Source of the DNA: an uncultured Spirochaetia bacterium
GTDB taxonomy: Bacteria > Desulfobacterota_D > UBA1144 > Nemesobacterales > CSP1-2
Direction of reading: 5' to 3'
Assembly (NCBI GenBank): GCA_964636885.1
Contig: CAZWVA010000001.1
Span: 52,228-114,862 of the forward strand
Length of the DNA stretch: 62,635 nt
The notes under the pieces were generated by a model, which saw only the letters and a list, made by a program, of their open reading frames with translations, was not told the origin of the DNA and did no database searches. Both the position numbers and the translations under genes were made by a program. Shown here one piece after another: positions 28,056-58,539 of this stretch (the first letter of the stretch is position 1; each line of letters opens with the position of its first letter).

Positions 28056-28071
28056 TGCAAAAAGGAGACCA
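28056..28071 (-). promoter_or_regulatory. sigma54 (-24/-12) promoter of the P-type ATPase
   Basis: TGGTCT-CCTTT-TTGCA, exact GG-N10-GC spacing. Confidence 0.6.
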
Positions 28072-28178
28072 AAGGTCGTGTTATTAAGGTTTATACCCTC
28101 TTTTCTACTATAATCTCCCTTTTTCCGGTTTCCTTTGGGATTATAATCTCCATAAAGCCCGGTAGAAGAGAGGTCTTC

Positions 28179-28202
28179 TGTAAGATTTTCTGACACCTGA
28201 CA
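28179..28202. promoter_or_regulatory. Upstream activator-like palindrome, site 1
   Basis: TGTAAGATTTTCTGACA followed by CCTGACA. Confidence 0.75.
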
Positions 28203-28244
28203 CCTTCTTAAGCCTTAATCCCAACAAAATAGTACAGATTCCAT

Positions 28245-28260
28245 TGGCATTCTTCTTGCA
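28245..28260 (+). promoter_or_regulatory. sigma54 promoter of the CBS-cco-cba operon
   Basis: TGGCAT-TCTTC-TTGCA. Confidence 0.8.
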
Positions 28261-28297
28261 AATTTTGAAGAAACGACTAGGTTGAGAGGCCTACAAA

Positions 28298-28678
28298 ATG
28301 ATCGTAAAGAAATACATGACCCCAAATCCCGTTACCGTGACCCCTGAAGATGACGTTAGGGCCACATTCAATCTGCTATTTGAACACGGTTTTCGTCAGG
28401 CTCCGGTGGTTAAGGATGGAAAGCTTGTAGGCATAGTTACGGACAGGGATCTGCGAACGGCCATTGCACACATAACCCCCGAGTCCCATATTACCGTAGG
28501 AGATGTTATGACATCTGACCCTATTACCGTTACTGAGTATACGAGTATAGAAAAGGCCGCTCGAATGATCTGCCATCACAAGTTCAACGCCCTACCGGTT
28601 ACCTCCGATATGGGTGAATTGGTGGGGATTATAACTACGATCGATATACTCGAAGGTTTACTTGATGTCTATGTGTAG
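28298..28678 (+). CDS. CBS domain-containing protein (AcuB-like)
   Basis: Two CBS repeats: MTPNPVTV, PVVKDGKLVGIVTDRDLR, LVGIITTIDIL. Confidence 0.9.
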   Translation: MIVKKYMTPNPVTVTPEDDVRATFNLLFEHGFRQAPVVKDGKLVGIVTDRDLRTAIAHITPESHITVGDVMTSDPITVTEYTSIEKAARMICHHKFNALPVTSDMGELVGIITTIDILEGLLDVYV

Positions 28679-28779
28679 GAAGAAACCGTCGAATAGAAGG
28701 GATGAGATCCACGTAATAAGACGGAGAGAAAGGGACCGGCTGCCAGTGCTGGGTGTTTATGAAGGGAGAGTACGGTTAG

Positions 28780-31245
28780 GTGAAAGAGATACGAGAAACT
28801 CTGTGTCCTCCTAGCGCGGGTTACACTCTCAACCAACCCTTAGAACAAACCCACTGCTTTCACTGCGGCGATGAGCTTGTTCCCTCGAGAGTAGTGGAAT
28901 CGAATGGTAGGCTTTTCTGTTGCACGGGCTGCCGCTCCGTTTATGAACTCCTGCATCAACTAGGTCTTGACGACTTCTATAGGCTAAAGGAAGCGCTGTA
29001 TAAAGAGGAAGTAAGACCGCCGATCGATCCGGATTCCTCAGAGAGCTATGAGTATCTCAATCAGGATAACTTTATAAAACTCTATACGACCGAGGAATCC
29101 CCGCTCACGATGGATTTCTATATCGAGGGGATTCACTGTGCCGCCTGCCTTTGGCTCATAGAGAAGATCCCCGATACCGTGCCAGACGTTGAATCTGTTT
29201 CCCTTAACATGTCCACGAACGTGGCCGAGGTGACCTTTAAGAAGGGGGGGATGTTTTCAGCCTTTCCCGAAACGGTAAAGAGGTTTGGCTATAGGGCCCA
29301 TCCCATAAGGGTCGGTGAAGAGGCTAAAGGGCTTAGGAAAAGGGAGAACAGAAGGTCTCTTATTCGCTTAGGGGTTGCAGCGGCTTGCGCCGGGAATATA
29401 ATGTTACTCTCTGCGGCCATATACTCGGGTGCCACGGGTGTATTTGCCGAGCAGTTTGCGCTACTAAACCTTATACTGGCCATTCCTGTAGTTACGTATA
29501 GCGCCTTTCCGTTTTATAGAAGCGTGCTTTCTTCCTTGAGGGCAAGGCGTGCAACCGTTGATATACCTATCGTATTTGTCATCGTATCGGGCTTTGTCCT
29601 AAGCGCTTATAATTACCTGAGAGGTAGCGACCGGATTTACTTCGACTCAATAACTACCTTTATATTCCTTCTCCTTTCGAGTAGGTATTTCTTAAGAAGC
29701 GTTCAGGAGAGGATATCGGAGAGAGAGTCTTTTAATAGGGGTCTCTTCTCTTTGAACCGGGTTCTCGTATGGGATCATAAGACCCAGCAGTACTTCTTTC
29801 AACCAATAGGAGATCTTAAACCCGGGGACAGGATAAAACTGACAAAGGGAGACCGTATTCCAGCCGATGGCAAGCTCCTGTCTTTTAGTGTCCAGTTAAA
29901 CCTCTCCGTTCTTACCGGAGAGAATATACCTCAAACGGTTTTGAAGGATGGTGATGTGTTTGCGGGCTCGATAATCGAGTCTGAGGAGGCCATTATAGAG
30001 GTAATAAAGACGGGTAGACAAACGCGCATAGGTGGAATACTGAATGAGGTCGAGAGAAACTATAAGAGCAGATTCGGTTTTTCCACATACAGTGATAGGT
30101 ATGCAACTGTATTTACCTCACTTGTCGGAATAATCGCCACCGCCTCGTTTCTCACCCTCTCTTCGATCTACGGTTCCTCGGAGGGCTTAAATAGGGTAAT
30201 CGCCTTTATCCTGATTGCCTGTCCTTGCGCCTTTGTCTTTGCACTTCCCCTCTCGCTCGGTTTATCCCTCAAGTCGGCGATTGAAAGCGGGTTTCTCGTT
30301 AAGGACATAGGGGTCTTTGAGAAGCTCCAGCGCCTAAGAAACGTGTTCTTTGACAAGACGGGTACCCTAACAAAAGGGGTATTCAGGATACTACACTGGG
30401 ACGTTGCGGGGTTATCCCAGGAGGACGTTGCGGCTATACTCGCTATAGAAAGGCAGTCCAACCATCCAATAGCCCGTGCCATAGTGAGTTATCTTTCGGA
30501 TAGGATGCTGATCCTACCAGATGTAAGGGACTTTAAACATATCTATTCAAAGGGAATAGAGGCAAAGGTAAACGGCCATATTTATAGATTCGAATCCGAG
30601 AGGGACATGAACCATAAGGGTGATATAAACAAGGTCATAACGACGAGGGTACTCATATATAGGGACGAAGAGCCGATCTCGGAGGTTTTGTTGGGGGATT
30701 CCTTAAAGGAAGATGCCAAATACGTTATAGGTGAGCTTAAGGCTAGAGGTCTCAACGTCTATATACTCTCAGGTGATAAGGAAGAGAGCGTAAAAGGGGT
30801 TGCGGAGAGGCTTTCTATTCCTCAAGAAAACGTTTTCTGGGAGAAGACCCCTGAAGAGAAGTCTGGGATCATTAAAAGCAACGGGAACTCGATGATGGTG
30901 GGGGATGGGTTAAACGACGCCGGGGCACTATCGTCGGCGTATATAGGCGTTGCCATACAGGGAAGCGTAGAGGAGAGTCTCAAGGTATCGGACGTTTACG
31001 TATTAAACAACGATCTATTTACTATTTTGGATTTTCTGGATCACGGAAGTGCCACCGTACAAACGATAAAGCGAAACAGGGTTTTCTCAATCGTCTATAA
31101 CATGACGGCTGGGACCCTCGCCCTACTGGGTTACATAAATCCCCTCATTGCGGCTGTACTTATGCCCTTAAGCTCACTTCTACTCATAAGCTCGACCCTA
31201 TACGGAAAAAGCAGGTCCAGGGTGAGAGAGAGGGTTTATTCATGA
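28780..31245 (+). CDS. ccoI: Copper-translocating P1B-type ATPase of the cbb3 cluster (CcoI/FixI)
   Basis: N-terminal CFHCG and CCTGC, HCAAC HMA, ACPCA, DKTGTLT; adjacent to ccoS/ccoN. Confidence 0.85.
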   Translation: MKEIRETLCPPSAGYTLNQPLEQTHCFHCGDELVPSRVVESNGRLFCCTGCRSVYELLHQLGLDDFYRLKEALYKEEVRPPIDPDSSESYEYLNQDNFIKLYTTEESPLTMDFYIEGIHCAACLWLIEKIPDTVPDVESVSLNMSTNVAEVTFKKGGMFSAFPETVKRFGYRAHPIRVGEEAKGLRKRENRRSLIRLGVAAACAGNIMLLSAAIYSGATGVFAEQFALLNLILAIPVVTYSAFPFYRSVLSSLRARRATVDIPIVFVIVSGFVLSAYNYLRGSDRIYFDSITTFIFLLLSSRYFLRSVQERISERESFNRGLFSLNRVLVWDHKTQQYFFQPIGDLKPGDRIKLTKGDRIPADGKLLSFSVQLNLSVLTGENIPQTVLKDGDVFAGSIIESEEAIIEVIKTGRQTRIGGILNEVERNYKSRFGFSTYSDRYATVFTSLVGIIATASFLTLSSIYGSSEGLNRVIAFILIACPCAFVFALPLSLGLSLKSAIESGFLVKDIGVFEKLQRLRNVFFDKTGTLTKGVFRILHWDVAGLSQEDVAAILAIERQSNHPIARAIVSYLSDRMLILPDVRDFKHIYSKGIEAKVNGHIYRFESERDMNHKGDINKVITTRVLIYRDEEPISEVLLGDSLKEDAKYVIGELKARGLNVYILSGDKEESVKGVAERLSIPQENVFWEKTPEEKSGIIKSNGNSMMVGDGLNDAGALSSAYIGVAIQGSVEESLKVSDVYVLNNDLFTILDFLDHGSATVQTIKRNRVFSIVYNMTAGTLALLGYINPLIAAVLMPLSSLLLISSTLYGKSRSRVRERVYS

Positions 31246-31427
31246 ACATACTCTTTTTAACGCTTGCGATCTCAATGGCGATAGCCCTCGTCTTTTTAGT
31301 GGCCTTTATATGGGCGACCAAAAAGGGGCAGTACGATGATCTAATAACCCCTAGCCATAGGATACTGATAGATGATTTTGAGACAAAAAAGAACCGGAAA
31401 GAGAAGGAGGATAAAGTAAATGGTTGA
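31242..31427 (+). CDS. ccoS: cbb3-type oxidase assembly protein
   Basis: AFIWATKKGQYDDL..P..RILIDD. Confidence 0.9.
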   Translation: MNILFLTLAISMAIALVFLVAFIWATKKGQYDDLITPSHRILIDDFETKKNRKEKEDKVNG

Positions 31428-33582
31428 CAGGAGTGAAGTCAACGGCAAATCGATAGAGAGGGTCATCTATGACGATGATATCGTAAAGAGTTTCCTCTTT
31501 GCGACGATCCTCTGGGGAGCGGCGGCTTTTCTTGTGGGTTTGCTGGTGGCACTTGAACTCGCCTTTTGGAAGGCCAATCTCGATCTTCCGTGGCTGACAT
31601 TTGGAAGGATTCGACCACTTCACACGAATGCGGCGATTTTCGCCTTTGGTGGGAATATCATTTTTGCGGGGACTTACCATTCGATTCAAAGACTGCTTAA
31701 GACGCGCTTATATTCGGATATTCTGAGTAGGATCCACTTCTGGGGCTGGCAGCTTATCATCGTGGCGGCCCTAATCACCCTGCCCCTTGGGTATTCTCAA
31801 GGCAAAGAGTATGCGGAGCTTGAGTGGCCGATCGATATCGCAATCGCCTTGGTTTGGGTAATCTTTGGTGTTAACTTCTTTGGAACCATAGCCATAAGGA
31901 GGGTGAAACACCTATATGTGGCTATATGGTTCTATATCGCTACGATAATAACGGTAGCGGTACTACATATAGTAAATTCCATCGAGATCCCCGTAGGTTT
32001 TCTGAAGAGCTATCCCGTCTATGCTGGGGTACAGGACGCCCTTGTTCAATGGTGGTATGGACACAATGCTGTGGCCTTCTTCCTTACCACCCCCTTTCTG
32101 GGACTCATGTATTATTACGTTCCAAAGGCCGCCAATCGACCGATATACAGTTACAAATTGTCTATAGTCCATTTCTGGTCCCTGGTTTTCATATACATAT
32201 GGGCCGGGCCTCACCATCTGCTGAATTCGGCACTCCCGGACTGGGCACAGACCCTTGGAATGATCTTCAGTCTCATGCTGTGGGCGCCAAGCTGGGGAGG
32301 GATGATAAACGGGCTCCTCACGCTTAGAGGGGCATGGGAAAGGCTTCGCACGGATCCGATAATAAAGTTTCTGGCCGTAGCCGTAACGTTCTATGGAATG
32401 TCGACGTTTGAAGGGCCTCTTATGTCCATTAAGTCGGTAAATTCGCTTGCTCATTATACGGACTGGATCATCGCCCATGTCCATGGGGGTACGCTCGGAT
32501 GGAACGGTTTTCTTACGTTTGGGATTATCTACTATCTTGTGCCTAAGCTCTGGAATAACAATATGTATAGCCAAAGACTCATGAACGCCCACTTCTGGAT
32601 AGGTTTCTTGGGGATTCTTCTCTACTATATCTCGATGTGGGCAAGCGGTATCACACAGGGGCTAATGTGGAGAGCAGTTGATGGGAACGGTCAACTCGTT
32701 TACCCAGACTTTGTTGAGACCGTTATGAGAATCATCCCGCTCTACTACGTAAGGTTTCTTGGTGGAACGCTTTATATCGTTGGTTTCTTCCTTCTGATCT
32801 ACAACGTTTGGGTGACCATTAAAACCGCTCCTCGGGAAGGAAGGGTTGCAACCGTTATTGAGGTTACTCCGTCCAAGGCCGAAGCACTAGGTACAGGCCA
32901 TAGAAAACTCGAGGCACTAGGAGCCGTGTTTTCGGTTCTACTCTTTATATCCATTGCGGTCGGATCCATTATTGAGATAATTCCGACCCTTTCTATCCAC
33001 AAATACCTTCCTGCCACATCCAAAACAAGGCCTTATACCCCGCTTGAGCTTGCCGGTAGGGATATCTATATCAAGGAGGGTTGCTATGTATGCCATTCGC
33101 AGATGGTAAGAAAACTGTCGTTTGATGTTCTCAGATTCGGACCAAACTCTACGATAGAGGAATCCATGTACGACAGGCCATTTCAGTGGGGGTCAAAAAG
33201 AACAGGTCCTGATCTGGCAAGGGTTGGGGTGAAATATCCGGATATGTGGCATTATCGCCATATGATGAATCCAAGGGATATTACTCCAAACTCGATTATG
33301 CCTTCGTACCCATGGCTTGCCGAGAGAAAAATAGACTATATCTCCCTAAGAAAAAAGCTGAGCGTCATGAAGCGACTCGGCGTCCCCTATAAGGATGACG
33401 AGGTAGCAAATGCCGATATCGATGCCGAGAAGGAGGCCGAAAGGATATATGAGGGTCTTATCACTCAGGATCCGTCGCTTAAGGGGATAAAAGACAAGGA
33501 GATCATCGCCCTTATTTCGTACTTGCAATCCCTGGGCAAGAGAACCACCCAACAACAGGAGGTGTCAAGATCAACCAGATAG
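31420..33582 (+). CDS. ccoN: Fused cbb3-type cytochrome c oxidase subunits I/II (CcoN-CcoO)
   Basis: FGRIRPLHTN, WWYGHNAVAFFLT, WAGPHHL, AHVH; CcoO part with CYVCHSQMVR and WGSKRTGPDLAR. Confidence 0.95.
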   Translation: MVDRSEVNGKSIERVIYDDDIVKSFLFATILWGAAAFLVGLLVALELAFWKANLDLPWLTFGRIRPLHTNAAIFAFGGNIIFAGTYHSIQRLLKTRLYSDILSRIHFWGWQLIIVAALITLPLGYSQGKEYAELEWPIDIAIALVWVIFGVNFFGTIAIRRVKHLYVAIWFYIATIITVAVLHIVNSIEIPVGFLKSYPVYAGVQDALVQWWYGHNAVAFFLTTPFLGLMYYYVPKAANRPIYSYKLSIVHFWSLVFIYIWAGPHHLLNSALPDWAQTLGMIFSLMLWAPSWGGMINGLLTLRGAWERLRTDPIIKFLAVAVTFYGMSTFEGPLMSIKSVNSLAHYTDWIIAHVHGGTLGWNGFLTFGIIYYLVPKLWNNNMYSQRLMNAHFWIGFLGILLYYISMWASGITQGLMWRAVDGNGQLVYPDFVETVMRIIPLYYVRFLGGTLYIVGFFLLIYNVWVTIKTAPREGRVATVIEVTPSKAEALGTGHRKLEALGAVFSVLLFISIAVGSIIEIIPTLSIHKYLPATSKTRPYTPLELAGRDIYIKEGCYVCHSQMVRKLSFDVLRFGPNSTIEESMYDRPFQWGSKRTGPDLARVGVKYPDMWHYRHMMNPRDITPNSIMPSYPWLAERKIDYISLRKKLSVMKRLGVPYKDDEVANADIDAEKEAERIYEGLITQDPSLKGIKDKEIIALISYLQSLGKRTTQQQEVSRSTR

Positions 33583-33743
33583 CCTTATCGTACTACGGGA
33601 ATAAAGAGATAGTTGTCGTCGCTCTCATAATATTCTTTGTGGTGTTTATAGGTTTGGTTATTTGGGTACACCTAAAACCGAATCAGAAGATCTATGAAGA
33701 GCTAGAACGATTACCATTAGAAAGCGAGGAGGACAAGAGATGA
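33570..33743 (+). CDS. ccoQ: cbb3-type oxidase subunit 3; no canonical start codon, probable ATC start
   Basis: Frame reads (I)NQIALSYYGNKEIVVVALIIFFVVFIGLVIWVHLKPNQKIYEELERLPLESEEDKR*; single TM plus LPL motif, between ccoO and ccoP; AGGAGG at 33557-33562. Confidence 0.8.
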   Translation: MNQIALSYYGNKEIVVVALIIFFVVFIGLVIWVHLKPNQKIYEELERLPLESEEDKR

Positions 33744-34321
33744 GTGATACAAGGCAGGAGGAAGGCAAATTAATAGAGGGTCATGAATACGACGGTATTA
33801 GAGAACTAAACAATCCGCTTCCTGGCTGGTGGTTAATGACCTTTTACATCACCATAATCTTTGCCGTCGTCTACTTCACATATTATCATCTTCTTGGAGG
33901 CCCCACGCTCGACCAAGAGCTCGCTCAAAAGATGGGTGAGATTAAGGCCGCAAGAACCGAGGCGGAGAAGACTAAAGGGGTAAAATCCGAAGAGGAACTC
34001 AGGGCCCTTCTTAATAATCGGGAGGTTCTGGCACAGGGTAAAGCCGAGTTTACCGCAAAGTGTACCCCGTGTCATGGAAACAACGGACAGGGTGTTATCG
34101 GGCCGAACCTAACAGATGACTACTGGATACACGGCGACGGAAGGATTTCCTCAATACTGGGAATCATTAATGAGGGGGTGCCTGACAAGGGAATGCCTCC
34201 CTGGAAGGGGGTCATTTCCCCTGATCTTATGGAAAAGGTGGCGGTATACGTCTACAGCCTTCATGGTACAAACCCTGAAGGGGCAAAACCGCCACAGGGG
34301 GTGAAGGTAGAGTACAGATGA
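33740..34321 (+). CDS. ccoP: cbb3-type oxidase subunit III (monoheme)
   Basis: GHEYDGIRELNNPLPGWW, CTPCH, GPNLTDDYWIHG, GMPPW. Confidence 0.92.
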   Translation: MSDTRQEEGKLIEGHEYDGIRELNNPLPGWWLMTFYITIIFAVVYFTYYHLLGGPTLDQELAQKMGEIKAARTEAEKTKGVKSEEELRALLNNREVLAQGKAEFTAKCTPCHGNNGQGVIGPNLTDDYWIHGDGRISSILGIINEGVPDKGMPPWKGVISPDLMEKVAVYVYSLHGTNPEGAKPPQGVKVEYR

Positions 34322-35781
34322 AGGTACTGGATCAAAGGAATCTACCCGAAGAGAGATTGGCCACCCTGGATGAGTCTGGAAAAAGGGTTTATATATTCCC
34401 GGCTCAGGTAAAAGGTCTATACAGACGCTGGAGGACGATAGTCCAGGTTATCCTCGTTCTTCTTTTTCTCTTTCTCCCATGGGTTAAGATCGGTGGCCAC
34501 CAGGCGGTGCTTCTGGATATATCCCAGAGAAGGTTCGCGATCTTTGGTCTGACATTCTGGGCTCACGACGGTCCCCTTATCTTCTTCATACTGGCGGCAC
34601 TTGCAATAGGGCTTGCCTTTGTAACCGCCATATGGGGAAGAATCTGGTGTGGTTGGGCCTGTCCACAAACGGTGTTTATAGACGGTATCTTCAGGCGTAT
34701 CGAGTACTGGGTCATTGGAAGCCACATAAAGCAGATAAACCTGGCAAGGTCTCCCTGGAACGGAGAAAAAATCGTCAAGTACTCCATAGTATGGTTTCTC
34801 TTTACGGTTGTAAGCCTCGTCATTGCCCACAGCTTCCTCGCCTATTTTGTAGAGGTCGAGAGACTCGTAGAGATGACTCAACACAGTCCCTACGAGAACT
34901 GGACTGTGTTCCTTATAATGGCTTTCATAACGGCGGTTCTTCTCTTTGACTTCGGGTGGTTCAGGGAACAGTTCTGTATCATCATGTGTCCTTATGGAAG
35001 GTTTCAATCCGTGTTAATGGACGACGATTCGCTTACCGTTTCTTACGATCCCCGTAGGGGAGAGCCCCGCAGGGGAACGGCAAAGCCGGGGGAGGCTGAA
35101 GGAGATTGTATAGACTGTTACAGGTGTGTGATGGTATGCCCCACCGGAATAGACATAAGAAGGGGCTTACAGATGGAATGTATCGGCTGTACGGCGTGCA
35201 TTGACGCATGCGACGAGGTTATGGAGAAAATCGGTAAGCCAAAGAGGCTTATAAGATACGCCACGGGAAACAGCCTAAAGGGGATAAGATCCAGGGTGCT
35301 AAGGCCAAGAGTGGTGATCTATTCCGTGATTCTTGTTATCGTACTATCTCTATTGGCGATTAACGTTTCAAGGCGTGAGGATATTGTGGTAACCATCTTG
35401 AGAGCTCAGGACACGCCATACCAGATCATAATGGATGAAGAGGAGGAGGCCGATGAAGGGGATGAAGATGAGAAAAACGGTGATCTAGAGGTCATAAATC
35501 ACTTTAAAGTCCACCTGAAGAATCAGACCTTTGATGATGCCGACCTGGAAATCGTGGTTCCTGAGGTGTGGAGAGAAAAGCACGTTGAGGTCATCTCTCA
35601 AACCGATTCTATAGATCTTGAGGCCGGAAGGGACCTCACTGTTCATTTCTTCATAAAATTCCCAAGCGGAATAACGTCTAAGACTGGAAAACAACCCATA
35701 AAGCTCATCTTTATGGATTCCAAAAGGAACCAAATAAAATCGGTAAAGGAAATAAATCTTGTCGGACCTAGCTCATTTTAA
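34318..35781 (+). CDS. ccoG: Cytochrome c oxidase accessory 4Fe-4S protein (FixG)
   Basis: GRIWCGWACPQTVF, CPYGRFQS, CIDCYRCVMVCPTGIDIRRG.Q.ECIGCTACIDAC. Confidence 0.92.
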   Translation: MKVLDQRNLPEERLATLDESGKRVYIFPAQVKGLYRRWRTIVQVILVLLFLFLPWVKIGGHQAVLLDISQRRFAIFGLTFWAHDGPLIFFILAALAIGLAFVTAIWGRIWCGWACPQTVFIDGIFRRIEYWVIGSHIKQINLARSPWNGEKIVKYSIVWFLFTVVSLVIAHSFLAYFVEVERLVEMTQHSPYENWTVFLIMAFITAVLLFDFGWFREQFCIIMCPYGRFQSVLMDDDSLTVSYDPRRGEPRRGTAKPGEAEGDCIDCYRCVMVCPTGIDIRRGLQMECIGCTACIDACDEVMEKIGKPKRLIRYATGNSLKGIRSRVLRPRVVIYSVILVIVLSLLAINVSRREDIVVTILRAQDTPYQIIMDEEEEADEGDEDEKNGDLEVINHFKVHLKNQTFDDADLEIVVPEVWREKHVEVISQTDSIDLEAGRDLTVHFFIKFPSGITSKTGKQPIKLIFMDSKRNQIKSVKEINLVGPSSF

Positions 35782-36478
35782 CCGTTTAGTAAGCGAATGG
35801 TCCTTTCTCTCTATTTCGGTTGGCGTATTTATAGCCAGCGTCCTGGGGAGTTCACATTGCGTGTCTATGTGCGGTCCTATTGCCATCACTGTGAATAACG
35901 AGAGCGGATATCTGGGATTCTACCATCTGGGGCGTTTACTGAGCTATCTCATACTAGGGGCGTTAGCCGGTTCTTTTGGAGGGGCATTGCTTTCAAGTAA
36001 ATACCAAATTGTCTCAATCTCTTCTGCCGTTCTAATATCGGTTTTCTTTATTTTCACGGGCTACAGGCTCATAAGGCAGAAACCCTTGGATCTATTCTTT
36101 TTTAAGAAACTGAGTCCCCTTTTATTCACCCCAGCAAGATGGGCTAGGGCACAGAAACCGGCACTGAAATCACTCACAATCGGTGCTATAAACGGTTTTC
36201 TTCCCTGCGGATGGCTTTATGTATTTGTGCTAGGCTCCATAGCCACGAAAGAACCGCTATATAGCGCCGTACTGCTTGCGGTTTTCTGGTTGGGAACGGT
36301 TCCCGCTCTAACCATATTCCCGATCTTTTACAAAAGGATATTGGGTAGGCTCCCTAGGAGACTAAATCAGATAGCCGGGGTAATCCTCGTAGTCGTTGGA
36401 TTAGTGAACGTTTTACTCATCGTTCTAACTCGTGTAATGCCGGTCACCCATTCCATCCACAATATACATCACCATTGA
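35759..36478 (+). CDS. Sulfite exporter TauE/SafE (DsbD_2) family membrane protein of cbb3 clusters
   Basis: HCVSMCGP, YHLGRLLSY, GFLPCGWLY, FWLGTVP. Confidence 0.85.
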   Translation: MSDLAHFNRLVSEWSFLSISVGVFIASVLGSSHCVSMCGPIAITVNNESGYLGFYHLGRLLSYLILGALAGSFGGALLSSKYQIVSISSAVLISVFFIFTGYRLIRQKPLDLFFFKKLSPLLFTPARWARAQKPALKSLTIGAINGFLPCGWLYVFVLGSIATKEPLYSAVLLAVFWLGTVPALTIFPIFYKRILGRLPRRLNQIAGVILVVVGLVNVLLIVLTRVMPVTHSIHNIHHH

Positions 36479-36567
36479 TCAGAGACATTTATGGTGATTC
36501 TACGTTGAAATTCGATAACATCGGATTTAAAATAGACTAGCCAAAACCTTTTTCAAGGGGAGGAGAT

Positions 36568-36690
36568 ATGGAAAGGGAGAAAAGGGAATTTAAGCCTGTA
36601 GGGGCCATGGTCTTTTTCATCTTTATTATAATCCTTTTTGCCCTTATGTGGTTCTCTGTCTATCTGGTAAATCTCGCCGAGGGGAGGTAG
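36568..36690 (+). CDS. cbaD: ba3-type oxidase subunit IIa (40 aa, missed by the ORF track)
   Basis: MEREKREFKPVGAMVFFIFIIILFALMWFSVYLVNLAEGR; KPxGA...W..VY pattern, RBS GGAGGAG, directly before subunit II. Confidence 0.8.
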   Translation: MEREKREFKPVGAMVFFIFIIILFALMWFSVYLVNLAEGR

Positions 36691-36693
36691 GAG

Positions 36694-37170
36694 ATGAAGG
36701 TAGACCCTTTTGAAAAGATCGCTATTTTTGTTGGTGGCGTGCTTCTGGTCGCCTTTCTCATAGCGATAGTCTATGCCAACTTTGGTTGGGGTATAAAGAT
36801 CCCCTCATGTGAAGCGGATACGAAGCCCTTTACAAAGGGGGCCTTCATTGAGAGCGGTCCACGGTCCTACGAGGTGCACATATTGACCAAGATGTGGTAT
36901 TTCGATATGGGGGATAACAGGAATGAAATCACCATTCCCGTTGGCTCAAGGGTAACCTTCTTTGTTACGAGCGGTGATGTCATACACGGTGTTAAGATTC
37001 CAAGCAAGAACATAAACATGATGGCCATCCCTGGAGTGGTCGGTAGACTGGAAACCACATTCGATAAGCCCGGGGAGTACATGGTTATCTGCCATGAGTA
37101 CTGTGGAATAGGACACCAGGGTATGTATGGGAAGGTAAGGGTCACCGAAGAGGTGGCCACAGGTAGGTGA
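36694..37170 (+). CDS. cbaB: ba3-type (family B) cytochrome c oxidase subunit II
   Basis: DVIHG and CHEYCGIGHQGM CuA ligands, one N-terminal TM. Confidence 0.9.
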   Translation: MKVDPFEKIAIFVGGVLLVAFLIAIVYANFGWGIKIPSCEADTKPFTKGAFIESGPRSYEVHILTKMWYFDMGDNRNEITIPVGSRVTFFVTSGDVIHGVKIPSKNINMMAIPGVVGRLETTFDKPGEYMVICHEYCGIGHQGMYGKVRVTEEVATGR

Positions 37171-37196
37171 TGGTATGGTCTTCAAGGAGGGAAGCC

Positions 37197-38831: not shown

Positions 38832-38840
38832 GGGGAGAGA

Positions 38841-39413: not shown

Positions 39414-39479
39414 CATCCCATGCCGGTTCTTCTATCCGTCTTAAATTAAGACGACTTCCGTCAGATTGATCTTATATTT

Positions 39480-47153: not shown

Positions 47154-47181
47154 CTTATTTACCTCCTTTTTATGCAGTTAA

Positions 47182-47697: not shown

Positions 47698-47713
47698 TGC
47701 AATCCTTATGCCA
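47698..47713 (-). promoter_or_regulatory. sigma54 promoter of the nos operon
   Basis: TGGCAT-AAGGA-TTGCA. Confidence 0.8.
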
Positions 47714-47757: not shown

Positions 47758-47781
47758 TGTAAGGTGTCGGATAATCTGACA
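47758..47781. promoter_or_regulatory. Upstream activator-like palindrome, site 3
   Basis: TGTAAGG then TGTCGGATAATCTGACA. Confidence 0.75.
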
Positions 47782-47788: not shown

Positions 47789-47802
47789 AGTGAGCGCTCA
47801 CT
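47789..47802. promoter_or_regulatory. TetR-type operator next to the nos enhancer
   Basis: Perfect palindrome AGTGAGCGCTCACT; related copy at 48395-48414. Confidence 0.65.
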
Positions 47803-47808: not shown

Positions 47809-48414
47809 TTATGCCTCTAAAACCCTAATCGCTGAGTTTGCAACTTCGGCTATGGTTCTACCATAGTCAAGGCCAATGAGACCGCTATTAAAGAAGAGAA
47901 TCGTTCTTGTTATCATTCCTATTACCATCGCCGCTCCCAGGTTCTCATCTATCTTTCTGAAATCTCCTTTTTCGATTCCAAGGCGTATTACTTCCACAAA
48001 GATATCTTTGGGTTTCGGCTTCTCTTCTGGAATCCTTCCCAGCTCTGTAAGGTGTGCTTCCATTATGTATGAGTATGCCTTAGGCTGGTTCTTTGCAAAA
48101 TCAAAAAAGTTTTGAATTAGAACCCTTAGCTTCTCCTTTGGATCGGTGTAGTTGCTTGTGTTTTCTACTAGTTTTTCTCTAAACGTGTCCATATTGCTGA
48201 TAAAAAGCTTAAGGGCAAGGTCATCTTTGCTTTTAAAGTGTTTGTATATGGTTCCCTCTGCTATACCGGCTTTTCTTGCTATCTCCCTCGTTGTAGTGCC
48301 TTTTATCCCCTTCTTTATGAACAGGCTAAGGGCGATATTAAGTATCCTATTCTTTGAATCCAAGAGGCTTCTCTTCTTTCTAATGGCTCTTCTGGCAAGT
48401 GAGTGATTACCCAT
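47809..48414 (-). CDS. TetR/AcrR family regulator (alternative TTG start at 48363)
   Basis: ILNIALSLFIKKGIKGTTTREIARKAGIAEGTIYKHFKSKDDL HTH. Confidence 0.9.
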   Translation of the reverse strand: MGNHSLARRAIRKKRSLLDSKNRILNIALSLFIKKGIKGTTTREIARKAGIAEGTIYKHFKSKDDLALKLFISNMDTFREKLVENTSNYTDPKEKLRVLIQNFFDFAKNQPKAYSYIMEAHLTELGRIPEEKPKPKDIFVEVIRLGIEKGDFRKIDENLGAAMVIGMITRTILFFNSGLIGLDYGRTIAEVANSAIRVLEA

Positions 48415-48432: not shown

Positions 48433-48448
48433 CGCAACCAGTGTGCCA
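48433..48448 (-). promoter_or_regulatory. sigma54 promoter of the TetR gene
   Basis: TGGCAC-ACTGG-TTGCG. Confidence 0.75.
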
Positions 48449-48491: not shown

Positions 48492-48515
48492 TGTAAGATG
48501 TCAGGGAATCAGACG
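48492..48515. promoter_or_regulatory. Upstream activator-like palindrome, site 4 (degenerate)
   Basis: TGTAAGA then TGTCAGGGAATCAGACG. Confidence 0.6.
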
Positions 48516-52930: not shown

Positions 52931-52946
52931 TACAATTCGTATGCCA
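52931..52946 (-). promoter_or_regulatory. sigma54-like promoter of the beta-barrel gene (variant -12)
   Basis: TGGCAT-ACGAA-TTGTA. Confidence 0.55.
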
Positions 52947-52999: not shown

Positions 53000-53023
53000 C
53001 GTCTTATACTCTGACATCTGACA
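53000..53023. promoter_or_regulatory. Upstream activator-like palindrome, site 5
   Basis: CGTCTTATACTCTGACA followed by TCTGACA. Confidence 0.6.
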
Positions 53024-53295
53024 GAGGGTCATGATGGGTCCCACCCCCCTCTTGTATTTTTACGGGTTCTTAAATTCCGTTCGGTTTTTTATCAGGACAC
53101 AAACCTCAAAAAGCGGCCCCAGTTCTTAGGGTCTTCTGGTTATATTTGAAACACGTTGCTTACATTTGAAACAGAATAGTTTCTATAAAAGATCTGCTCT
53201 ATGAGGAGTGGTGGGTTGAGAAAAAGTGAATAGTCTGCTATTCTTTCTTGTTCTTTCCACAATTTCTAAGGGAATTCGGGAAGATACCGTGATTT

Positions 53296-53311
53296 TGGCA
53301 TAAACCTTGCA
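53296..53311 (+). promoter_or_regulatory. sigma54 promoter of the siroheme reductase
   Basis: TGGCAT-AAACC-TTGCA. Confidence 0.8.
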
Positions 53312-53339: not shown

Positions 53340-55565
53340 ATGAGTGTAAATGAGGTAAAGATATGGGAGCAAATAGACATAAACAAGGGCTCCGATGTGA
53401 CGAGCGAACTCAACGAGTACGAGGAGATCATAAATAAACTCTACAGGGGTGAGATACATCCTGAAAGGTTTAAATCATACCGTCTTCTTTTTGGAACATA
53501 TGGGGTAAGACACCAGGGCGAGGGGATTCATATGCAGAGGATAAAGGTGCCGAGTGGGTTTATAACCTCTGAGCAACTCCGCACGATAGCGGATGTCGTT
53601 GAGAAATACGCCGGGTCAGGGCATGGGCATCTCACAACGAGGCAGGATATTCAGCTTCACTTTGTGAGACTCGAAAACGTGCCCTCCCTTTTAAGGGAGC
53701 TTGCAAGGGTTGGGATAACGACTCGAGAGGCATGCGGAAACACCGTGAGGAATGTGACTTCATCTTACCTATCAGGGATCTGTCCCGACGAGGTTTTTGA
53801 TACCTTGCCCTACGCCTTATACACAACGAGGTATTTCCTGAGACATACCCTAACATCGACCCTTCCAAGAAAATTCAAGATAGCGTTTTCGGAATGTGAA
53901 AACGACCATGCAATGGTGAGGATCCACGATATAGGGTGTGTTGCTCAAAAGAGACAGAACGGAAAAGATATATACGGTTTTAAGGTCTATGTCGGTGGTG
54001 GTCTGGGTGCTATTCCTTTTTACGCAAAACCTATAGTCGATTTTGTGTCTGTTGATGAGTTCTATCCGCTTGCAGAGGCGATAATCAGGATATTTCACGA
54101 ACACGGAACGGAGGAGAGGAAAAACAAAAACAAGGCGAGAATCAAATTCCTTATAGCGAGAATCGGTTTTGATAGATTCAGGGAGCTCGTTATGGCGGAG
54201 TTTGAACGGGTCAAAAGACTAAAACCCGTAAAGGAGGACCTCGAAAGATACGTGGAGGGTTTCCCGAAACCAGCTCCCGGTAGGAACGGCAGGGAGGACG
54301 GCGGGGAGAATACGAGGCGACTCAAGAATCCGGTTCATAAACCGGACCCCAAGGACGATCTCTACAGGCTGTTCCTTCAAAAATACACTTTCAGGCAGAA
54401 GCAAGAGGGATACTTTGGGGTTTATGTAAAGCCGCCCATAGGAAACCTAAAACCCAAGGAGTTTAGGTTTGTTGCAGATCTCTCTGAGCTCTACGGGGCG
54501 GGTTACGTTAGGATAACACCCCATCAGAAGATCCTTTTGCCATGGGTTGGGGAGGAGTTCCTTTATGATGTTCATACAGAACTGAGAGAACGGGGGTTTA
54601 TAGGTGGCATAAATGAGGCCATGCGGGAGATCGTATCCTGTCCGGGTGCCTTTTCATGCAAACTCGCCGTGACCCATCCATACAACCTGGCGGAGTACAT
54701 AGGCGAGAGGGTCAAGGACCTGGGAGGGGTACGTATCAACATATCCGGTTGTCCAAATAGCTGCGGACAGCACCATGTGGGCGATATAGGGTTTTATGGA
54801 GCGTCGACAAAGGTTGGAGGTAGACTCGCGCCCCATTATGTTGTTATGGTAGGTGGTAATCCATTCAAGCAGATGGAGAGATACGGTCAGGTTATAGGCA
54901 AAGTTCCCGCAAAGAACGCACATCTTTTCGTTAAGGCCGTTGTCGATTTCTGGAAGGAGAACAAAAAGGATGGAGAGGAGTTTTTCGAGTTTACCGACAG
55001 GGTCGGTCTTGACTCCTTTAGACGCGTCCTTGCCCCATTTGCGAAGGCCGATCCCAATGACCCTGAGATCTATGCGGAGCCCGGTATAGGCGAGGACTTT
55101 AAGATGGAGGCCGAGGCTAGGGGAGAATGTATGGGAAGCCTTCTCGACATCATGGCGGTAAACCTGTTTGACTCCATAAGGAACGTATATGAGGCCGAAG
55201 ACGATATGAAGGAAGGAAACTGGAAAGAGGTGAAGAGGAAGTGCCTGGATTCGATACCGAAGTGTGCAAGGATGTATATCTACCTTGACGGCATTGAACT
55301 CCAGGAGGAAGAAGAGATACTAAGTGAGTTTGTCACAAAGATAGTGCCCAGGGGCTGGCTTTGCCACGACTGGTCTGATATAAAGGAGAAATACATGGAA
55401 TGGAGGGACGCCGAGGTTTCAAAAGCCCTCGCTGAGGAGATATACAACTACACAAGGGATCTCGTTAAGGATTGTGACAAGGCGTTTGTAAGATTACAGC
55501 CCGACCTTAAGATTCAAGCGTGCATAAAAGGGAGAGGGGAAGAATCGCATATCCCAGGAGAATAG
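53340..55565 (+). CDS. Siroheme/4Fe-4S nitrite/sulfite reductase (NirA/CysI family) with C-terminal helical extension; start ATG at 53340
   Basis: HLTTRQDIQLH, TTREACGNTVRNV, LPRKFKIA, SCPG..SC and NISGCPNSCGQH ligands. Confidence 0.88.
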   Translation: MSVNEVKIWEQIDINKGSDVTSELNEYEEIINKLYRGEIHPERFKSYRLLFGTYGVRHQGEGIHMQRIKVPSGFITSEQLRTIADVVEKYAGSGHGHLTTRQDIQLHFVRLENVPSLLRELARVGITTREACGNTVRNVTSSYLSGICPDEVFDTLPYALYTTRYFLRHTLTSTLPRKFKIAFSECENDHAMVRIHDIGCVAQKRQNGKDIYGFKVYVGGGLGAIPFYAKPIVDFVSVDEFYPLAEAIIRIFHEHGTEERKNKNKARIKFLIARIGFDRFRELVMAEFERVKRLKPVKEDLERYVEGFPKPAPGRNGREDGGENTRRLKNPVHKPDPKDDLYRLFLQKYTFRQKQEGYFGVYVKPPIGNLKPKEFRFVADLSELYGAGYVRITPHQKILLPWVGEEFLYDVHTELRERGFIGGINEAMREIVSCPGAFSCKLAVTHPYNLAEYIGERVKDLGGVRINISGCPNSCGQHHVGDIGFYGASTKVGGRLAPHYVVMVGGNPFKQMERYGQVIGKVPAKNAHLFVKAVVDFWKENKKDGEEFFEFTDRVGLDSFRRVLAPFAKADPNDPEIYAEPGIGEDFKMEAEARGECMGSLLDIMAVNLFDSIRNVYEAEDDMKEGNWKEVKRKCLDSIPKCARMYIYLDGIELQEEEEILSEFVTKIVPRGWLCHDWSDIKEKYMEWRDAEVSKALAEEIYNYTRDLVKDCDKAFVRLQPDLKIQACIKGRGEESHIPGE

Positions 55566-56136: not shown

Positions 56137-56152
56137 AGCAATTTGCGTACCA
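56137..56152 (-). promoter_or_regulatory. sigma54 promoter of the ferredoxin gene
   Basis: TGGTAC-GCAAA-TTGCT. Confidence 0.75.
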
Positions 56153-56202: not shown

Positions 56203-56226
56203 TGTCAGATGTCTTATTTTCTTACA
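56203..56226. promoter_or_regulatory. Upstream activator-like palindrome, site 6
   Basis: TGTCAGA then TGTCTTATTTTCTTACA. Confidence 0.7.
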
Positions 56227-56293
56227 GATTTAGGTGGGTACCCACATTTAAGATTCAAATGGTTTTCTATGGCCTTTCAAACGACCGAATCAC

Positions 56294-56309
56294 TGGCATA
56301 TAGTTTGCT
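56294..56309 (+). promoter_or_regulatory. sigma54 promoter of bioB
   Basis: TGGCAT-ATAGT-TTGCT. Confidence 0.8.
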
Positions 56310-56363: not shown

Positions 56364-57353
56364 ATGACCGAAGACCTGATTAGACGCCTAAAGAAGAAAC
56401 TCCTTAAAGATGAGGAGCCTCTTACCTTCGATGAGGCTTACAATCTCGCCCTTCTTCAAGGGGAATACCTCTTCGATCTTATCGGTCTTTCATACAGGGT
56501 AAAGGAGAAATACAATAAAAGAGGTGTATACCTCTGTAGCATTATAAGTGCCAAAACGGGTGCCTGTTCTGAGAACTGTGCCTTCTGCGCGCAATCCGCC
56601 CACAGTGAATCGCCAGTTTCTGCTCACCCGATGATGGATCCTCCGGAGATACTCAAGGTGGCAAGGGAGGCCGAAGGGTCCGGAGCCTCCGAGTTCTGTA
56701 TCGTAACAAGCGGAAGGGGACCCGATAAAAGGACTTTTAAAAGGGTTCTAGACGCCGTTTATCTGATACGTAGCCATACGGGTCTCAGCGTTGGGTGTTC
56801 CCTCGGTATCCTGACAGAAGAGCAGGCTAGGCTTCTTTTCAAGGCGGGGGTGAATCGCTATAACCATAACCTTGAAGCCTCGCGGAGCTTCTTTCCCAGT
56901 ATCTGCTCAACCCACACGTATGAGGAGCGTCTTAGAACCGCATATCTGGTTAAGGAGAACGGAATGGAGCTCTGTTGTGGCGGGATCTTCGGTATGGGAG
57001 AATCCCTAGAGCAAAGGATCGAACTGGCTTTTGAACTTCGGGAACTCAATCCGACCCTGGTTCCCATAAACTTTCTTAATCCGCGTCCCGGCACCGCCCT
57101 GGCTACGAGGCCTTTACTCACGCCTTTTGATGCCATAAGTATAGTCGCTCTCTTTAGGCTTATCCTTCCTAGGAGTATCCTCATATGCGCCGGAGGGAGA
57201 GAGGTGGTGCTTGGAAACCTCCAGCCCTTGGCCCTCCTTGCAGGAGCCAATGCCCTTATAGCGGGAAACTATCTCACAACCCCCGGACGCTTGCCAAAGG
57301 AGGATATTCAAATGATCGGGGATTTGGAATTGCCCGTTCTAAAGCACGGATAG
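56364..57353 (+). CDS. bioB: Biotin synthase
   Basis: SAKTGACSENCAFCAQS, YNHNLE, LCCGGIFGMGE, VPINFL, GNYLTTPG. Confidence 0.92.
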   Translation: MTEDLIRRLKKKLLKDEEPLTFDEAYNLALLQGEYLFDLIGLSYRVKEKYNKRGVYLCSIISAKTGACSENCAFCAQSAHSESPVSAHPMMDPPEILKVAREAEGSGASEFCIVTSGRGPDKRTFKRVLDAVYLIRSHTGLSVGCSLGILTEEQARLLFKAGVNRYNHNLEASRSFFPSICSTHTYEERLRTAYLVKENGMELCCGGIFGMGESLEQRIELAFELRELNPTLVPINFLNPRPGTALATRPLLTPFDAISIVALFRLILPRSILICAGGREVVLGNLQPLALLAGANALIAGNYLTTPGRLPKEDIQMIGDLELPVLKHG

Positions 57354-57394: not shown

Positions 57395-57880
57395 CTATAG
57401 CCGAATCTCCACCTTATACCCAAAGGCTACCCCGTTATCGATCAACCTGATCGTCTCTGGGATGACCTTAAAGAATCGAACATCTTCTATCCTCGACGAG
57501 AAACCGCTGTCTCCAAAGAAGAGCTTTACAAATGGATGTTTCTCCGAGTAGGCCTTTATCGCCTTGGGTAATTCCTCCTCAGGGACCCTGTATGCCTTTC
57601 CCTTTATCTGCAGTCCCTTAATCGTCCTCCATTCCGAGTGGTCTTTATTAATCGTAATGGCCACATTGGGGTTTCGAGATAGGTTTATAGAGTGGTCGGA
57701 TTTTGGGCTTGAGATGAAGTATATGGTAAGCCCGTCATTTGCGTAGAAAAGAGAGGCCGCAAAAGGGGTATCGTCCCTCGATGTTGCAAGGGTGATTGTG
57801 TTGTGTCTATTGAGGAGTTCCAAAATGGTTTCTCTTACGCATTCATGTGTGTTTTTATTCATCTCTTGCATGATGAGCAA
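57395..57880 (-). CDS. Pyridoxamine 5'-phosphate oxidase-like (split barrel) protein
   Basis: TITLAT, PFAASLFYA, SSPKSDH..NL..NP.VA.TI, IKGLQIKG. Confidence 0.8.
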   Translation of the reverse strand: MLIMQEMNKNTHECVRETILELLNRHNTITLATSRDDTPFAASLFYANDGLTIYFISSPKSDHSINLSRNPNVAITINKDHSEWRTIKGLQIKGKAYRVPEEELPKAIKAYSEKHPFVKLFFGDSGFSSRIEDVRFFKVIPETIRLIDNGVAFGYKVEIRL

Positions 57881-58302
57881 TAGCCGTAGAGTTCGACCTT
57901 ATGATTGGTAATCTCAAAGTCGTTAAGCCTTGCTACCTCTTTTGAATAACGCTCAATCCTCTCATCTTCAAACTCCGTTATCCTTCCACACCCAATGCAG
58001 ATAAGATGGTCGTGATGCTCTCCCTCGAACTTGACGGGTTCGTATCTGGTTCGTCCCTCGCCGAAATCCCTCTCAAAGGCCAGACCGCACTCCTTAAAGA
58101 GCTTTAGCGTCCTATAGATAGTGGTATATCCGATTTTGGGAGAGAGCCTTCTTACCCTTTCATAGAGCTCTTCTACCGTCATGTGGAGGCCGGGATAACT
58201 GAAGAACTCGTTAAAGATAATGCTCCTCTGCCTCGTGGATTTAAGGCGTTTTTTGGCTATGTATTCGTCGAATACCTTTTTCCTCTTATCTGTGGGCTTC
58301 AA
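57859..58302 (-). CDS. fur: Fur family transcriptional regulator
   Basis: LKSTRQR, TIYRTLKLF, HHDHLICIGCG, LYGYCSSC. Confidence 0.9.
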   Translation of the reverse strand: MKPTDKRKKVFDEYIAKKRLKSTRQRSIIFNEFFSYPGLHMTVEELYERVRRLSPKIGYTTIYRTLKLFKECGLAFERDFGEGRTRYEPVKFEGEHHDHLICIGCGRITEFEDERIERYSKEVARLNDFEITNHKVELYGYCSSCKR

Positions 58303-58318
58303 TGGTATTCTCTTTTAA

Positions 58319-58334
58319 AGCAAAGTTTGTGCCA
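58319..58334 (-). promoter_or_regulatory. sigma54 promoter of the Fur gene
   Basis: TGGCAC-AAACT-TTGCT. Confidence 0.75.
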
Positions 58335-58386
58335 TACGCGGCTCTTTATTCCCCCTAGGGTTCTCTTTTAGATCGAATACCGTGGG

Positions 58387-58411
58387 TGTCAGATTGTAAG
58401 ATTATCTGACA
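58387..58411. promoter_or_regulatory. Upstream activator-like palindrome, site 7
   Basis: TGTCAGAT then TGTAAGATTATCTGACA. Confidence 0.8.
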
Positions 58412-58523
58412 GAATTATGCTCATATAGAAGATGGGCATATTGGCTTCTCGAGTACAAAAGGGGCGATTCCTTTTCAGTTGTTTACTGGGATCTCCACTG
58501 CCGAATCGAAGGACAACCGTTAG

Positions 58524-58539
58524 TGGCACACAAATTGCT
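58524..58539 (+). promoter_or_regulatory. sigma54 promoter of the radical SAM gene
   Basis: TGGCAC-ACAAA-TTGCT. Confidence 0.8.

Follow-up and report, generated by a model that had tools for sequence, protein, structure and literature searches.

Which regulatory circuit drives the respiratory genes of an uncultivated bacterium that carries a nitrous oxide (N2O) reductase? This question is raised by a 62,635-nt stretch of DNA from contig CAZWVA010000001.1 of assembly GCA_964636885.1 (in the following, the window), in whose right-hand part a cbb3-type oxidase operon, a clade II N2O reductase (nosZ) operon and several cofactor-related and regulatory genes are accompanied by -24/-12 elements typical of sigma-54 promoters. 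This right-hand part is also present in two independent assemblies, the Logan assembly SRR11728137 and the metagenome-assembled genome (MAG) GCA_035574755.1. A sequence-only reading had listed eleven such elements and proposed that oxidases, N2O reductase, siroheme reductase, radical S-adenosylmethionine (radical-SAM) enzymes, Fur and an ion pump form one RpoN regulon instead of being under Crp/Fnr-type control. According to the analysis described here, these genes probably belong, with exceptions discussed below, to a sigma-54-dependent low-oxygen regulon of an uncultivated Dadabacteria-type bacterium that is governed by a single activator and includes clade II nosZ.

Sigma-54 promoters and a shared upstream element

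All eleven elements were found at the coordinates and on the strands given for them, and each is correctly oriented. Their significance was assessed with the sigma-54 consensus TGGCAC-N5-TTGCW, using 100 dinucleotide shuffles of the window as chance expectation. With at most one mismatch, this consensus has 11 matches in the window compared to 0.84 ± 0.83 in the shuffled sequences, none of which reached 11. Nine of these matches are sites of the sequence-only reading, and the remaining two, 7542-7557(+) in a short-chain dehydrogenase gene and 56538-56553(-) in bioB, lie antisense within the coding sequence and have no upstream element; two such matches are in line with chance. A 24-bp matrix, built from 122 unique non-window sites in relatives in order to avoid circularity, recovered ten of the eleven elements: it gives 10 matches of at least 12 bits (0.76 expected), all of them among the proposed sites, 9 of at least 14 bits (0.28 expected) and 8 of at least 16 bits (0.10 expected). 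No match of 12 bits or more lies in the left 28 kb, where none had been noticed before either.

The simplest alternative is that such matches reflect chance or the composition of AT-rich intergenic DNA, the genes being transcribed from ordinary sigma-70 promoters. It draws on the fact that the bare GG-N10-GC spacing, by which the sites had originally been described, is not enriched by itself (443 occurrences compared to 425 ± 18 expected), and that consensus matches with up to three mismatches occur at chance level (178 compared to 171.6 expected). Within the consensus, however, with GG and GC 10 nt apart, nine sites have at most one mismatch and one has two, and stringent matches are enriched 13-fold or more. 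Moreover, sites are kept at orthologous genes whose proteins are only 50-80% identical, a second motif is linked to them at fixed, phased spacing, and the combined module is limited to a lineage with a matching GAFTGA activator (see below). Statistics and conservation thus effectively refute this alternative.

The exception is 28056(-) (TGGTCTCCTTTTTGCA, 28056-28071), which has three mismatches and stays below 10 bits on the matrix. Its sequence alone gives no support, being like that of chance matches, and only position and orientation speak for it; hence, the promoter by which the ion pump had been included in the regulon is statistically unsupported. The GT variant at 52931(-) is of moderate strength with 12.4 bits. 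Ten sites in the right-hand 35 kb are thereby confirmed as credible sigma-54 promoters, every one intergenic and correctly oriented, with predicted leaders of 6-44 nt if ATG 53340 is taken as the reductase start, which falls within the 6-60 nt claimed earlier. The TetR-family gene (start 48414) and the Fur-family gene (start 58302) would be nearly leaderless with only about 8 and 6 nt, respectively, and the TetR orthologues share this short promoter-start spacing.

Reading of the DNA upstream of the promoters revealed a shared element, namely a 17-bp dyad, TGTMAGA-N3-TCTKACA, followed after 1 bp by a third half-site, CTKACA. In a blind scan of the 62.6 kb for half-site clusters, seven clusters were obtained, all seven upstream of sigma-54 sites and none elsewhere, and the fixed-spacing pattern of the element has 6 matches in the window compared to 0.06 expected. 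The 7-N3-7 geometry over 17 bp is also that of the NtrC consensus TGCACCAnnnTGGTGCA (PMC8743547). No further conserved motif was common to the promoter regions compared. As any number of activators can use sigma-54, its shared use is insufficient to define a regulon, and it is the common upstream element which assigns the genes to one. Of the earlier proposal of one RpoN regulon, the single regulon is supported, on better grounds than given there, by seven copies of one element and a module conserved across the lineage, but its unit is the regulon of an activator, i.e., a bacterial enhancer-binding protein.

The promoters form four divergent pairs besides three single ones, all covered by the seven elements. 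For every element, there is at least one promoter whose -24 element is 42-54 bp away from the near end. Element 1 (28179-28202(+), TGTAAGATTTTCTGACA + C + CTGACA) ends 42 bp upstream of promoter TGGCATTCTTCTTGCA (28245-28260(+), one mismatch, 21.3 bits), which precedes a CBS gene followed by ccoI, ccoNO, ccoP, ccoG and a dsbD-like gene; the weak intergenic site 28056(-) before a P-type ATPase gene lies 107 bp from this element. Element 2 (40436-40459(+), TGTAAGATTTTCTTACA + T + CTGACA) is located 42 bp upstream of CGGCACCTTTCTTGCA (40502-40517(+), one mismatch, 17.1 bits) before the CBS-domain gene 40571-41179. Element 3 (47758-47781(-), on the plus strand TGTAAG G TGTCGGATAATCTGACA), near-identical copies of which occur in the relatives' loci L027 and L002-L005, lies 44 bp upstream of TGGCATAAGGATTGCA (47698-47713(-), 22.9 bits). 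This promoter serves the nos genes from 47655 down to 41212, encoding a cytochrome c, clade II NosZ, a membrane protein of 204 amino acids and NosDFLY. Element 4 (48492-48515(-)) is found 43 bp upstream of TGGCACACTGGTTGCG (48433-48448(-), 18.2 bits) and the TetR-family gene 47809-48414. Element 5 (53000-53023(+), CGTCTTATACTCTGACA + T + CTGACA) lies 54 bp upstream of the variant TGGCATACGAATTGTA (52931-52946(-)) of the outer-membrane-protein operon (52888 down to 48873); on its other side, at 272 bp, it is the nearest element to TGGCATAAACCTTGCA (53296-53311(+), 20.0 bits) before the siroheme sulfite/nitrite reductase gene 53340-55565. Element 6 (56203-56226(-)) is common to two divergent promoters, TGGTACGCAAATTGCT (56137-56152(-), 15.1 bits, element 50 bp upstream) for a small ferredoxin and a protein of 77 amino acids (56100 down to 55626), and TGGCATATAGTTTGCT (56294-56309(+), 22.8 bits, element 68 bp upstream on the palindrome side) for bioB (56364-57353). 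Likewise, element 7 (58387-58411(-)), with one extra base ahead of the third half-site, is common to TGGCACAAACTTTGCT (58319-58334(-), no mismatch, 18.5 bits, element 52 bp upstream) for Fur-family and PNPOx-like genes (58302 down to 57395) and to TGGCACACAAATTGCT (58524-58539(+), no mismatch, 20.9 bits) before the TIGR04053 radical-SAM/SPASM gene (58567-59679).

Several other sequences in these intergenic regions were considered. A direct repeat, ATTTGAAACA, occurs twice at about 53166-53200 upstream of the reductase promoter 53296(+), and it may be the site of a second regulator, this promoter being without a nearby shared enhancer. The perfect palindromes AGTGAGCGCTCACT (47789-47802, between the TetR stop codon and the nos enhancer) and GTGGGTACCCAC (56234-56245, between the ferredoxin and bioB promoters) were rejected as additional shared motifs, as each occurs once in the window; both are candidate operators, e.g., for the TetR protein. 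The boxes of Fur, NifA (TGT-N10-ACA), CRP (TGTGA-N6-TCACA) and NorR (GT-N7-AC) were rejected as well, since the spacing of their consensus sequences is unlike that of the 17-bp dyad.

Conservation in related genomes

A scan for the promoter-plus-element module was performed on 185,579 species-representative genomes, among which the window's own genome is not included. It returned 79 loci, compared to about 8 expected by our rough chance estimate, and nearly all of them are labelled Candidatus Dadabacteria, Thermodesulfobacteriota or 'Deltaproteobacteria'; in the NCBI taxonomy, Dadabacteria is a class within Thermodesulfobacteriota. The closest relative of the window, MAG185 (labelled 'Ignavibacteriales'), alone contributes 17 loci, and its radical-SAM protein shares 79% identity with that of the window. 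Within this lineage, the distance between element and -24 element, measured from the third-half-site side of 130 unique elements, falls into classes of 41-45 bp (68 elements), 50-56 bp (29) and 61-67 bp (9), while on the opposite side the classes are 52-57, 74-78 and 130-134 bp. As the search pattern permitted spacings of roughly 30-60 bp without preference, this phasing of roughly 10.5 bp is not an artefact of the search, and it is the helical phasing that an activator would need for contacting the holoenzyme.

The module also follows individual genes. In six MAGs with radical-SAM orthologues of 65-79% identity, the upstream sigma-54 site is kept, and in five of these (L002-L005, L027), two divergent promoters separated by about 210 bp flank a near-identical element, GGTGTAAGGTGTCAGAAAGTCTTAC. 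Overall, the module has a TIGR04053 radical-SAM gene downstream in 18 loci, where a HemY-like FAD oxidase gene often points the other way, and promoter and element precede 19 of 27 radical-SAM orthologues in relatives. The same holds for all eight ccoI orthologues and all three TetR orthologues, and for 12 orthologues of the cytochrome c gene at the head of the nos operon. Outer-membrane-protein orthologues have a sigma-54 site 41-43 nt ahead of the start in three of three cases, and the single reductase orthologue (L154, 83% identity) has one at the same position, while operon-internal genes in relatives are without sites. Further genes downstream of the module in relatives encode CBS-domain and universal stress proteins, a Zn-dependent alcohol dehydrogenase, ferredoxins, an Rrf2-family regulator and a sigma-70-family factor. 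In L002-L004, bioB, PNPOx-like and ferredoxin genes follow the sigma-54-driven radical-SAM genes, apparently in a single operon. In the window, the corresponding genes are under separate sigma-54 promoters, and regulon membership has therefore outlived operon rearrangement. Radical-SAM homologues of Bacillaceae (about 52% identity, L006-L080) have no linked sigma-54 module. The module is thus confined nearly entirely to Candidatus Dadabacteria/Thermodesulfobacteriota MAGs, where orthologues of the activator described below also occur.

The pairing of a HemY-like with a divergent radical-SAM gene under the same enhancer (L002-L005, L027, L086, L094, L142), often with two paralogues, suggests that heme synthesis includes a step independent of oxygen; in the window, it is instead the Fur-family gene that lies divergent to the radical-SAM gene. 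In L001, from the closest relative, the radical-SAM element at about 1150-1180 consists of three direct repeats, TCCGACA T TCTGACA TCAGACA, in place of the dyad with its half-site, and lies 133 bp from the promoter.

Conservation also bears on the claim that the sigma-54 system operates instead of Crp/Fnr control, for which 62 kb are insufficient. No gene for an enhancer-binding activator, RpoN or a Crp/Fnr-family protein was found in the 62.6-kb window, yet the relative L003 even carries a Crp/Fnr-family gene (11109-11822) inside a sigma-54-driven radical-SAM operon. In part of the lineage, Crp/Fnr-type control may hence be subordinate to the sigma-54 tier. The absence of NosR, in turn, is normal for clade II nos clusters.

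A candidate activator and its putative heme-PAS kinase

A search for the GAFTGA motif in relatives identified one conserved NtrC-type response regulator of 446-455 amino acids beside enhancer-bearing promoters. It combines a receiver domain (PF00072), a Sigma54_activat domain (PF00158) with a directly readable GAFTGA or GSFTGA loop and a C-terminal HTH_8 domain (PF02954), and its gene stands last in an operon of conserved order, after the genes for an acetyltransferase (about 200 amino acids) and a multi-PAS histidine kinase (484-964 amino acids). Orthologues of the activator, with 64-100% identity, were obtained from 20 species genomes, and the enhancer module is present in at least 17 of these; the next best NtrC-family proteins reach at most 44%. 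Of the 17 relatives examined, nearly all have a sigma-54 promoter ahead of the kinase/activator operon, and in about two thirds an enhancer can be recognised as well, with a degenerate one in MAG185; this arrangement implies positive autoregulation. In L251, the operon is located directly upstream of ccoI-ccoS-ccoNO-ccoP, and in the complete genome OZ244197 (L176), it adjoins the outer-membrane-protein and nos promoters. A second type of activator in L135 and L097 was rejected as a candidate, as it has a different helix-turn-helix domain and no consistent link to the element. The candidate activator falls below every curated NCBIfam equivalog cut-off tested, i.e., those of AtoC (394 bits, cut-off 714), NtrC (381/559), GlrR (362/763), NtrX (330/600), NorR (288/476) and ZraR, and it represents an unnamed subfamily whose closest solved structures are NtrC4 and NtrC1 of Aquifex. 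Neither the window nor any of the relatives' loci retrieved contains an open reading frame with an RpoN box; RpoN is implied by the GAFTGA-type activators of relatives.

The sensor domain of the kinase offers a clue to the signal. Compared with solved structures, the first PAS domain finds heme-PAS domains in all of its top 14 matches (1.8e-17 to 4e-13), with E. coli DosP at 1.8e-17 and FixL at about 1e-15, while the best PAS domain without heme scores 4e-4. The proximal histidine aligns (LVPDRFRSKHSEY vs. LIPRDLRPAHPEY) and is shared by all 20 orthologues, while 19 of these keep the distal arginine of FixL type (G-x-G-R). With 197 bits, the kinase does not reach the cut-off of 850 of the FixL model. 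Inside kinase genes (L162-L179), a weak sigma-54-like match, GGGAACTCCTCTTGCA, recurs on codons of the conserved motif G-T-P-L-A; as a promoter it was rejected, being a coding coincidence.

From sequence features and their conservation, we infer the steps of binding, signalling and activation as follows. The enhancer would be bound by the one NtrC-type response regulator with its receiver domain, GAFTGA/GSFTGA AAA+ domain and Fis-type helix-turn-helix. Phosphorylation would be carried out by the cytoplasmic multi-PAS histidine kinase with its first PAS domain of FixL/DosP heme type, upon which the activator would assemble on the correct helix face and open sigma-54 closed complexes using ATP. 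The likely signal is falling O2, with the deoxy-heme kinase being active and the regulon induced at low O2; both ligand identity and switch direction are suggested by analogy with FixL, and the regulon content fits. Induced together would be the high-affinity cbb3 oxidase with its copper pump, the clade II N2O reductase and CBS-domain proteins, as well as the TetR-family and Fur-family regulators, the siroheme reductase, the small ferredoxin and the radical-SAM enzymes BioB and TIGR04053 (AhbD-related). Via the same enhancer and promoter, as seen in relatives, the kinase/activator operon would be positively autoregulated. A more far-reaching proposition is that the whole low-oxygen and N2O-respiring programme of Dadabacteria depends on a single FixL-like heme-PAS kinase together with a single, unnamed activator of NtrC type, which would act directly at sigma-54 promoters via an undescribed three-half-site enhancer; this is advanced tentatively, with its chances seen as slightly short of even.

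A number of points weigh against such a single-activator low-oxygen regulon. Neither the kinase/activator operon nor rpoN lies in the window, and the close activator homologues looked up all stem from samples other than SRR11728137/GCA_035574755.1; the presence of the operon in the window's genome is thus presumed from relatives. The element distances of 56294 (68 bp), 58524 (113 bp) and 53296 (272 bp) are atypical, a third half-site just 7-8 bp from the second is unusual among NtrC-type sites, and 28056(-) has the quality of a chance match. Heme binding by the kinase PAS domain is a prediction from its sequence, and the distal methionine of DosP type is not conserved in the orthologues. Furthermore, the TetR-family regulator encoded in the regulon could in principle bind the 17-bp dyad, and the signal could be nitric oxide (NO), carbon monoxide (CO) or the redox state instead of O2.

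The last two points each lead to a reading of their own. If the dyad were the operator of another factor, the best candidate would be the TetR-family protein (47809-48414), with the sigma-54 promoters being real and the true enhancer-binding proteins, possibly several, binding elsewhere. Palindromes of about 15-17 bp are typical targets of TetR-family dimers, element and sigma-54 promoter accompany the TetR gene as well as each of its three orthologues, and the window is without an activator gene. Over 130 elements, however, the spacing is phased at about 42, 53 and 64 bp, which is expected of an activator and not of an operator, and the 7-N3-7 geometry equals that of NtrC. The element also lies ahead of the kinase/activator operon in many genomes, its distribution tracks the activator, and the nos promoter of OZ244197 (L176) has the element with no adjacent TetR gene and the activator operon adjacent. 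Given, in addition, that no other conserved motif is common to the promoter regions, an operator function of the dyad is regarded as quite improbable.

Alternatively, the single-activator sigma-54 regulon could exist as described with a kinase that senses NO, CO or redox, which would make the island a nitrosative/redox stress response. Responses to NO, CO or the redox state are possible for heme-PAS domains and related heme sensors, as exemplified by DosS/DosT and NtrY, and the regulon comprises NO-vulnerable Fe-S and heme enzymes, a Fur-family regulator and the N2O reductase, with an Rrf2-family regulator in the relative L151. Still, the PAS domain matches best with DosP and FixL, both of which sense O2, and the O2-contacting arginine of FixL type is kept in 19 of 20 orthologues. 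No gene for an NO reductase, flavohemoglobin or hybrid cluster protein was found among the downstream genes, and the core of the regulon (cbb3 oxidase, CBS and universal stress proteins, O2-independent radical-SAM enzyme) equals that of the NmpR hypoxia regulon of Myxococcus, which is treated in the next section. A stress response of this kind is therefore considered unlikely, and the reading as a low-oxygen regulon is retained in the following.

Known systems and further genes of the window

The closest described system is NmpRSTU of Myxococcus, where logic and regulon core are the same. In Myxococcus xanthus, the NtrC-like regulator NmpR, acting under a heme kinase, activates sigma-54 promoters under hypoxia, and its targets include a CBS gene, a universal stress protein gene, ccoI-cbb3, hemN and its own operons, i.e., it is autoregulated (PMC11841059). 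Common to both systems are a heme-dependent kinase, an NtrC-like regulator, sigma-54 promoters and autoregulation, as predicted here, and both regulons contain genes for CBS-domain and universal stress proteins, for cbb3 oxidase with a CcoI-type P-type ATPase and for a radical-SAM heme enzyme that works without O2. The sensors differ, as NmpRSTU uses the globin-coupled kinase NmpU and a phosphorelay via the hybrid kinase NmpS, whereas a single multi-PAS kinase of FixL/DosP type, encoded after an acetyltransferase gene, takes this place in the relatives examined here. Different DNA sites are used as well, namely two copies of GCGCA-N5-TGCGC 14-15 bp apart for NmpR compared to TGTMAGA-N3-TCTKACA plus one half-site. 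Additional members here are clade II nosZ, bioB, the siroheme reductase gene and the genes of Fur- and TetR-family regulators.

Other known systems share only some of these features. With NtrC at glnAp2 of Enterobacteria, the candidate activator has in common the receiver-AAA+-HTH order and, in the proposed scheme, the 17-bp 7-N3-7 dyad enhancer and sigma-54 dependence, while half-site sequence, signal (nitrogen status through NtrB) and regulon are different and the activator reaches only 381 bits of the NtrC cut-off of 559. FixL-FixJ-FixK of rhizobia likewise starts from an O2-sensing heme-PAS kinase and ends at cbb3 (fixNOQP), fixGHIS and nos genes, but FixJ is of LuxR type and acts at sigma-70 promoters via the Crp/Fnr protein FixK, where a direct sigma-54 activator is proposed here. 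NtrY of Brucella has been reported to bind heme. In the NtrY-NtrX systems of Brucella, Neisseria and Paracoccus, a PAS kinase and an NtrC-family regulator influence denitrification genes and high-affinity oxidases (PMC9409073). Unlike the candidate kinase, NtrY is membrane-bound, and the activator described here keeps GAFTGA/GSFTGA and scores 330 bits compared to the NtrX cut-off of 600. NtrX is generally considered to be sigma-54-independent for lack of GAFTGA. DosS/DosT-DosR of Mycobacterium combines heme kinases with a hypoxia regulon containing universal stress and CBS-domain proteins, a ferredoxin and a P-type ATPase; its sensors are GAF-heme proteins, however, and its regulator is of LuxR type and acts at sigma-70-dependent promoters. 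FixLJ-FixK, NtrYX and DosRST are thus analogous in function, but their output relies on other machinery.

Non-denitrifying organisms that carry clade II nosZ may act as sinks of N2O, a greenhouse gas. As cultures are lacking for most of these organisms, among them Dadabacteria, little is known about the conditions of their nosZ expression. The module described here predicts co-induction of nosZ, cbb3 oxidase and O2-sensitive or O2-independent cofactor enzymes at low O2, and regulon membership would become readable straight from metagenomes. Together with Myxococcus NmpR, it would provide a second independent example of sigma-54 activators in the role of the FixK/FNR tier of Proteobacteria. If the proposed regulation is true, it would represent the first direct control of a clade II nosZ operon by sigma-54 and an enhancer-binding protein, in place of the FixK/FNR/DNR tier on which model denitrifiers rely. 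Regulon membership in uncultivated N2O consumers could then be predicted with the enhancer as sequence marker. Literature searches yielded neither a description of nosZ under direct sigma-54/activator control nor a paper in which Dadabacteria and sigma-54 appear together. Probably new, then, are a lineage-specific single-activator sigma-54 hypoxia regulon, its enhancer motif and the inclusion of N2O reductase.

The gene assignments of the sequence-only reading hold. Based on Pfam matches, the region 28298-36478(+) encodes the CBS protein and the cbb3 oxidase operon with CcoI, fused CcoNO, CcoP, CcoG and a DsbD_2-family protein. The CcoN-CcoO fusion is a single open reading frame of 720 amino acids (31420-33582), and the two proteins are likewise fused in relatives (L251 gene, 727 amino acids). 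Next follow ba3-like COX2, COX1 and SCO1 genes (36694-39413(+), Pfam matches), which have no own sigma-54 site or element; the gap 36478-36694 is without a matrix match of 10 bits or more. Of the oxidases assigned to the regulon earlier, the cbb3 enzyme with promoter 28245(+) and its element is therefore retained, while the ba3-like genes can be members only through read-through; a COX2 orthologue in L099 has its own promoter-plus-element module. The nos operon (41212-47655(-)) is of clade II, as its NosZ matches TIGR04246, the family of clade II, Sec-dependent N2O reductases, with 951.5 bits and passes the cut-off of 625. BioB matches TIGR00433 with 374 bits, and the radical-SAM/SPASM protein (58567-59679) matches TIGR04053 with 488 bits, its nearest named relative being the heme b synthase AhbD. 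The other right-hand genes encode the second CBS-domain protein and, in one operon, the outer-membrane protein and then small membrane proteins.

Directly upstream of element 2 (40436-40459) lies a decayed sensor/response-regulator gene (39413-40430), whose receiver is interrupted by a stop codon (...LILVIDDEISVREITRVTLETYGYRVVTASDGAETITLYAKIK*) together with a frameshift, so that it goes on in another frame. Its part at 39853-40242 was considered as a regulator and rejected, being a decayed, frame-shifted receiver domain without a Pfam match. Finally, the ion pump to the left of the cbb3 operon is a type II P-type cation ATPase (24793-28005(-)) that carries an N-terminal EIIA (PtsN-like) domain of the phosphotransferase system (PTS) at residues 6-146, an unusual fusion of a regulatory domain with an ion pump.

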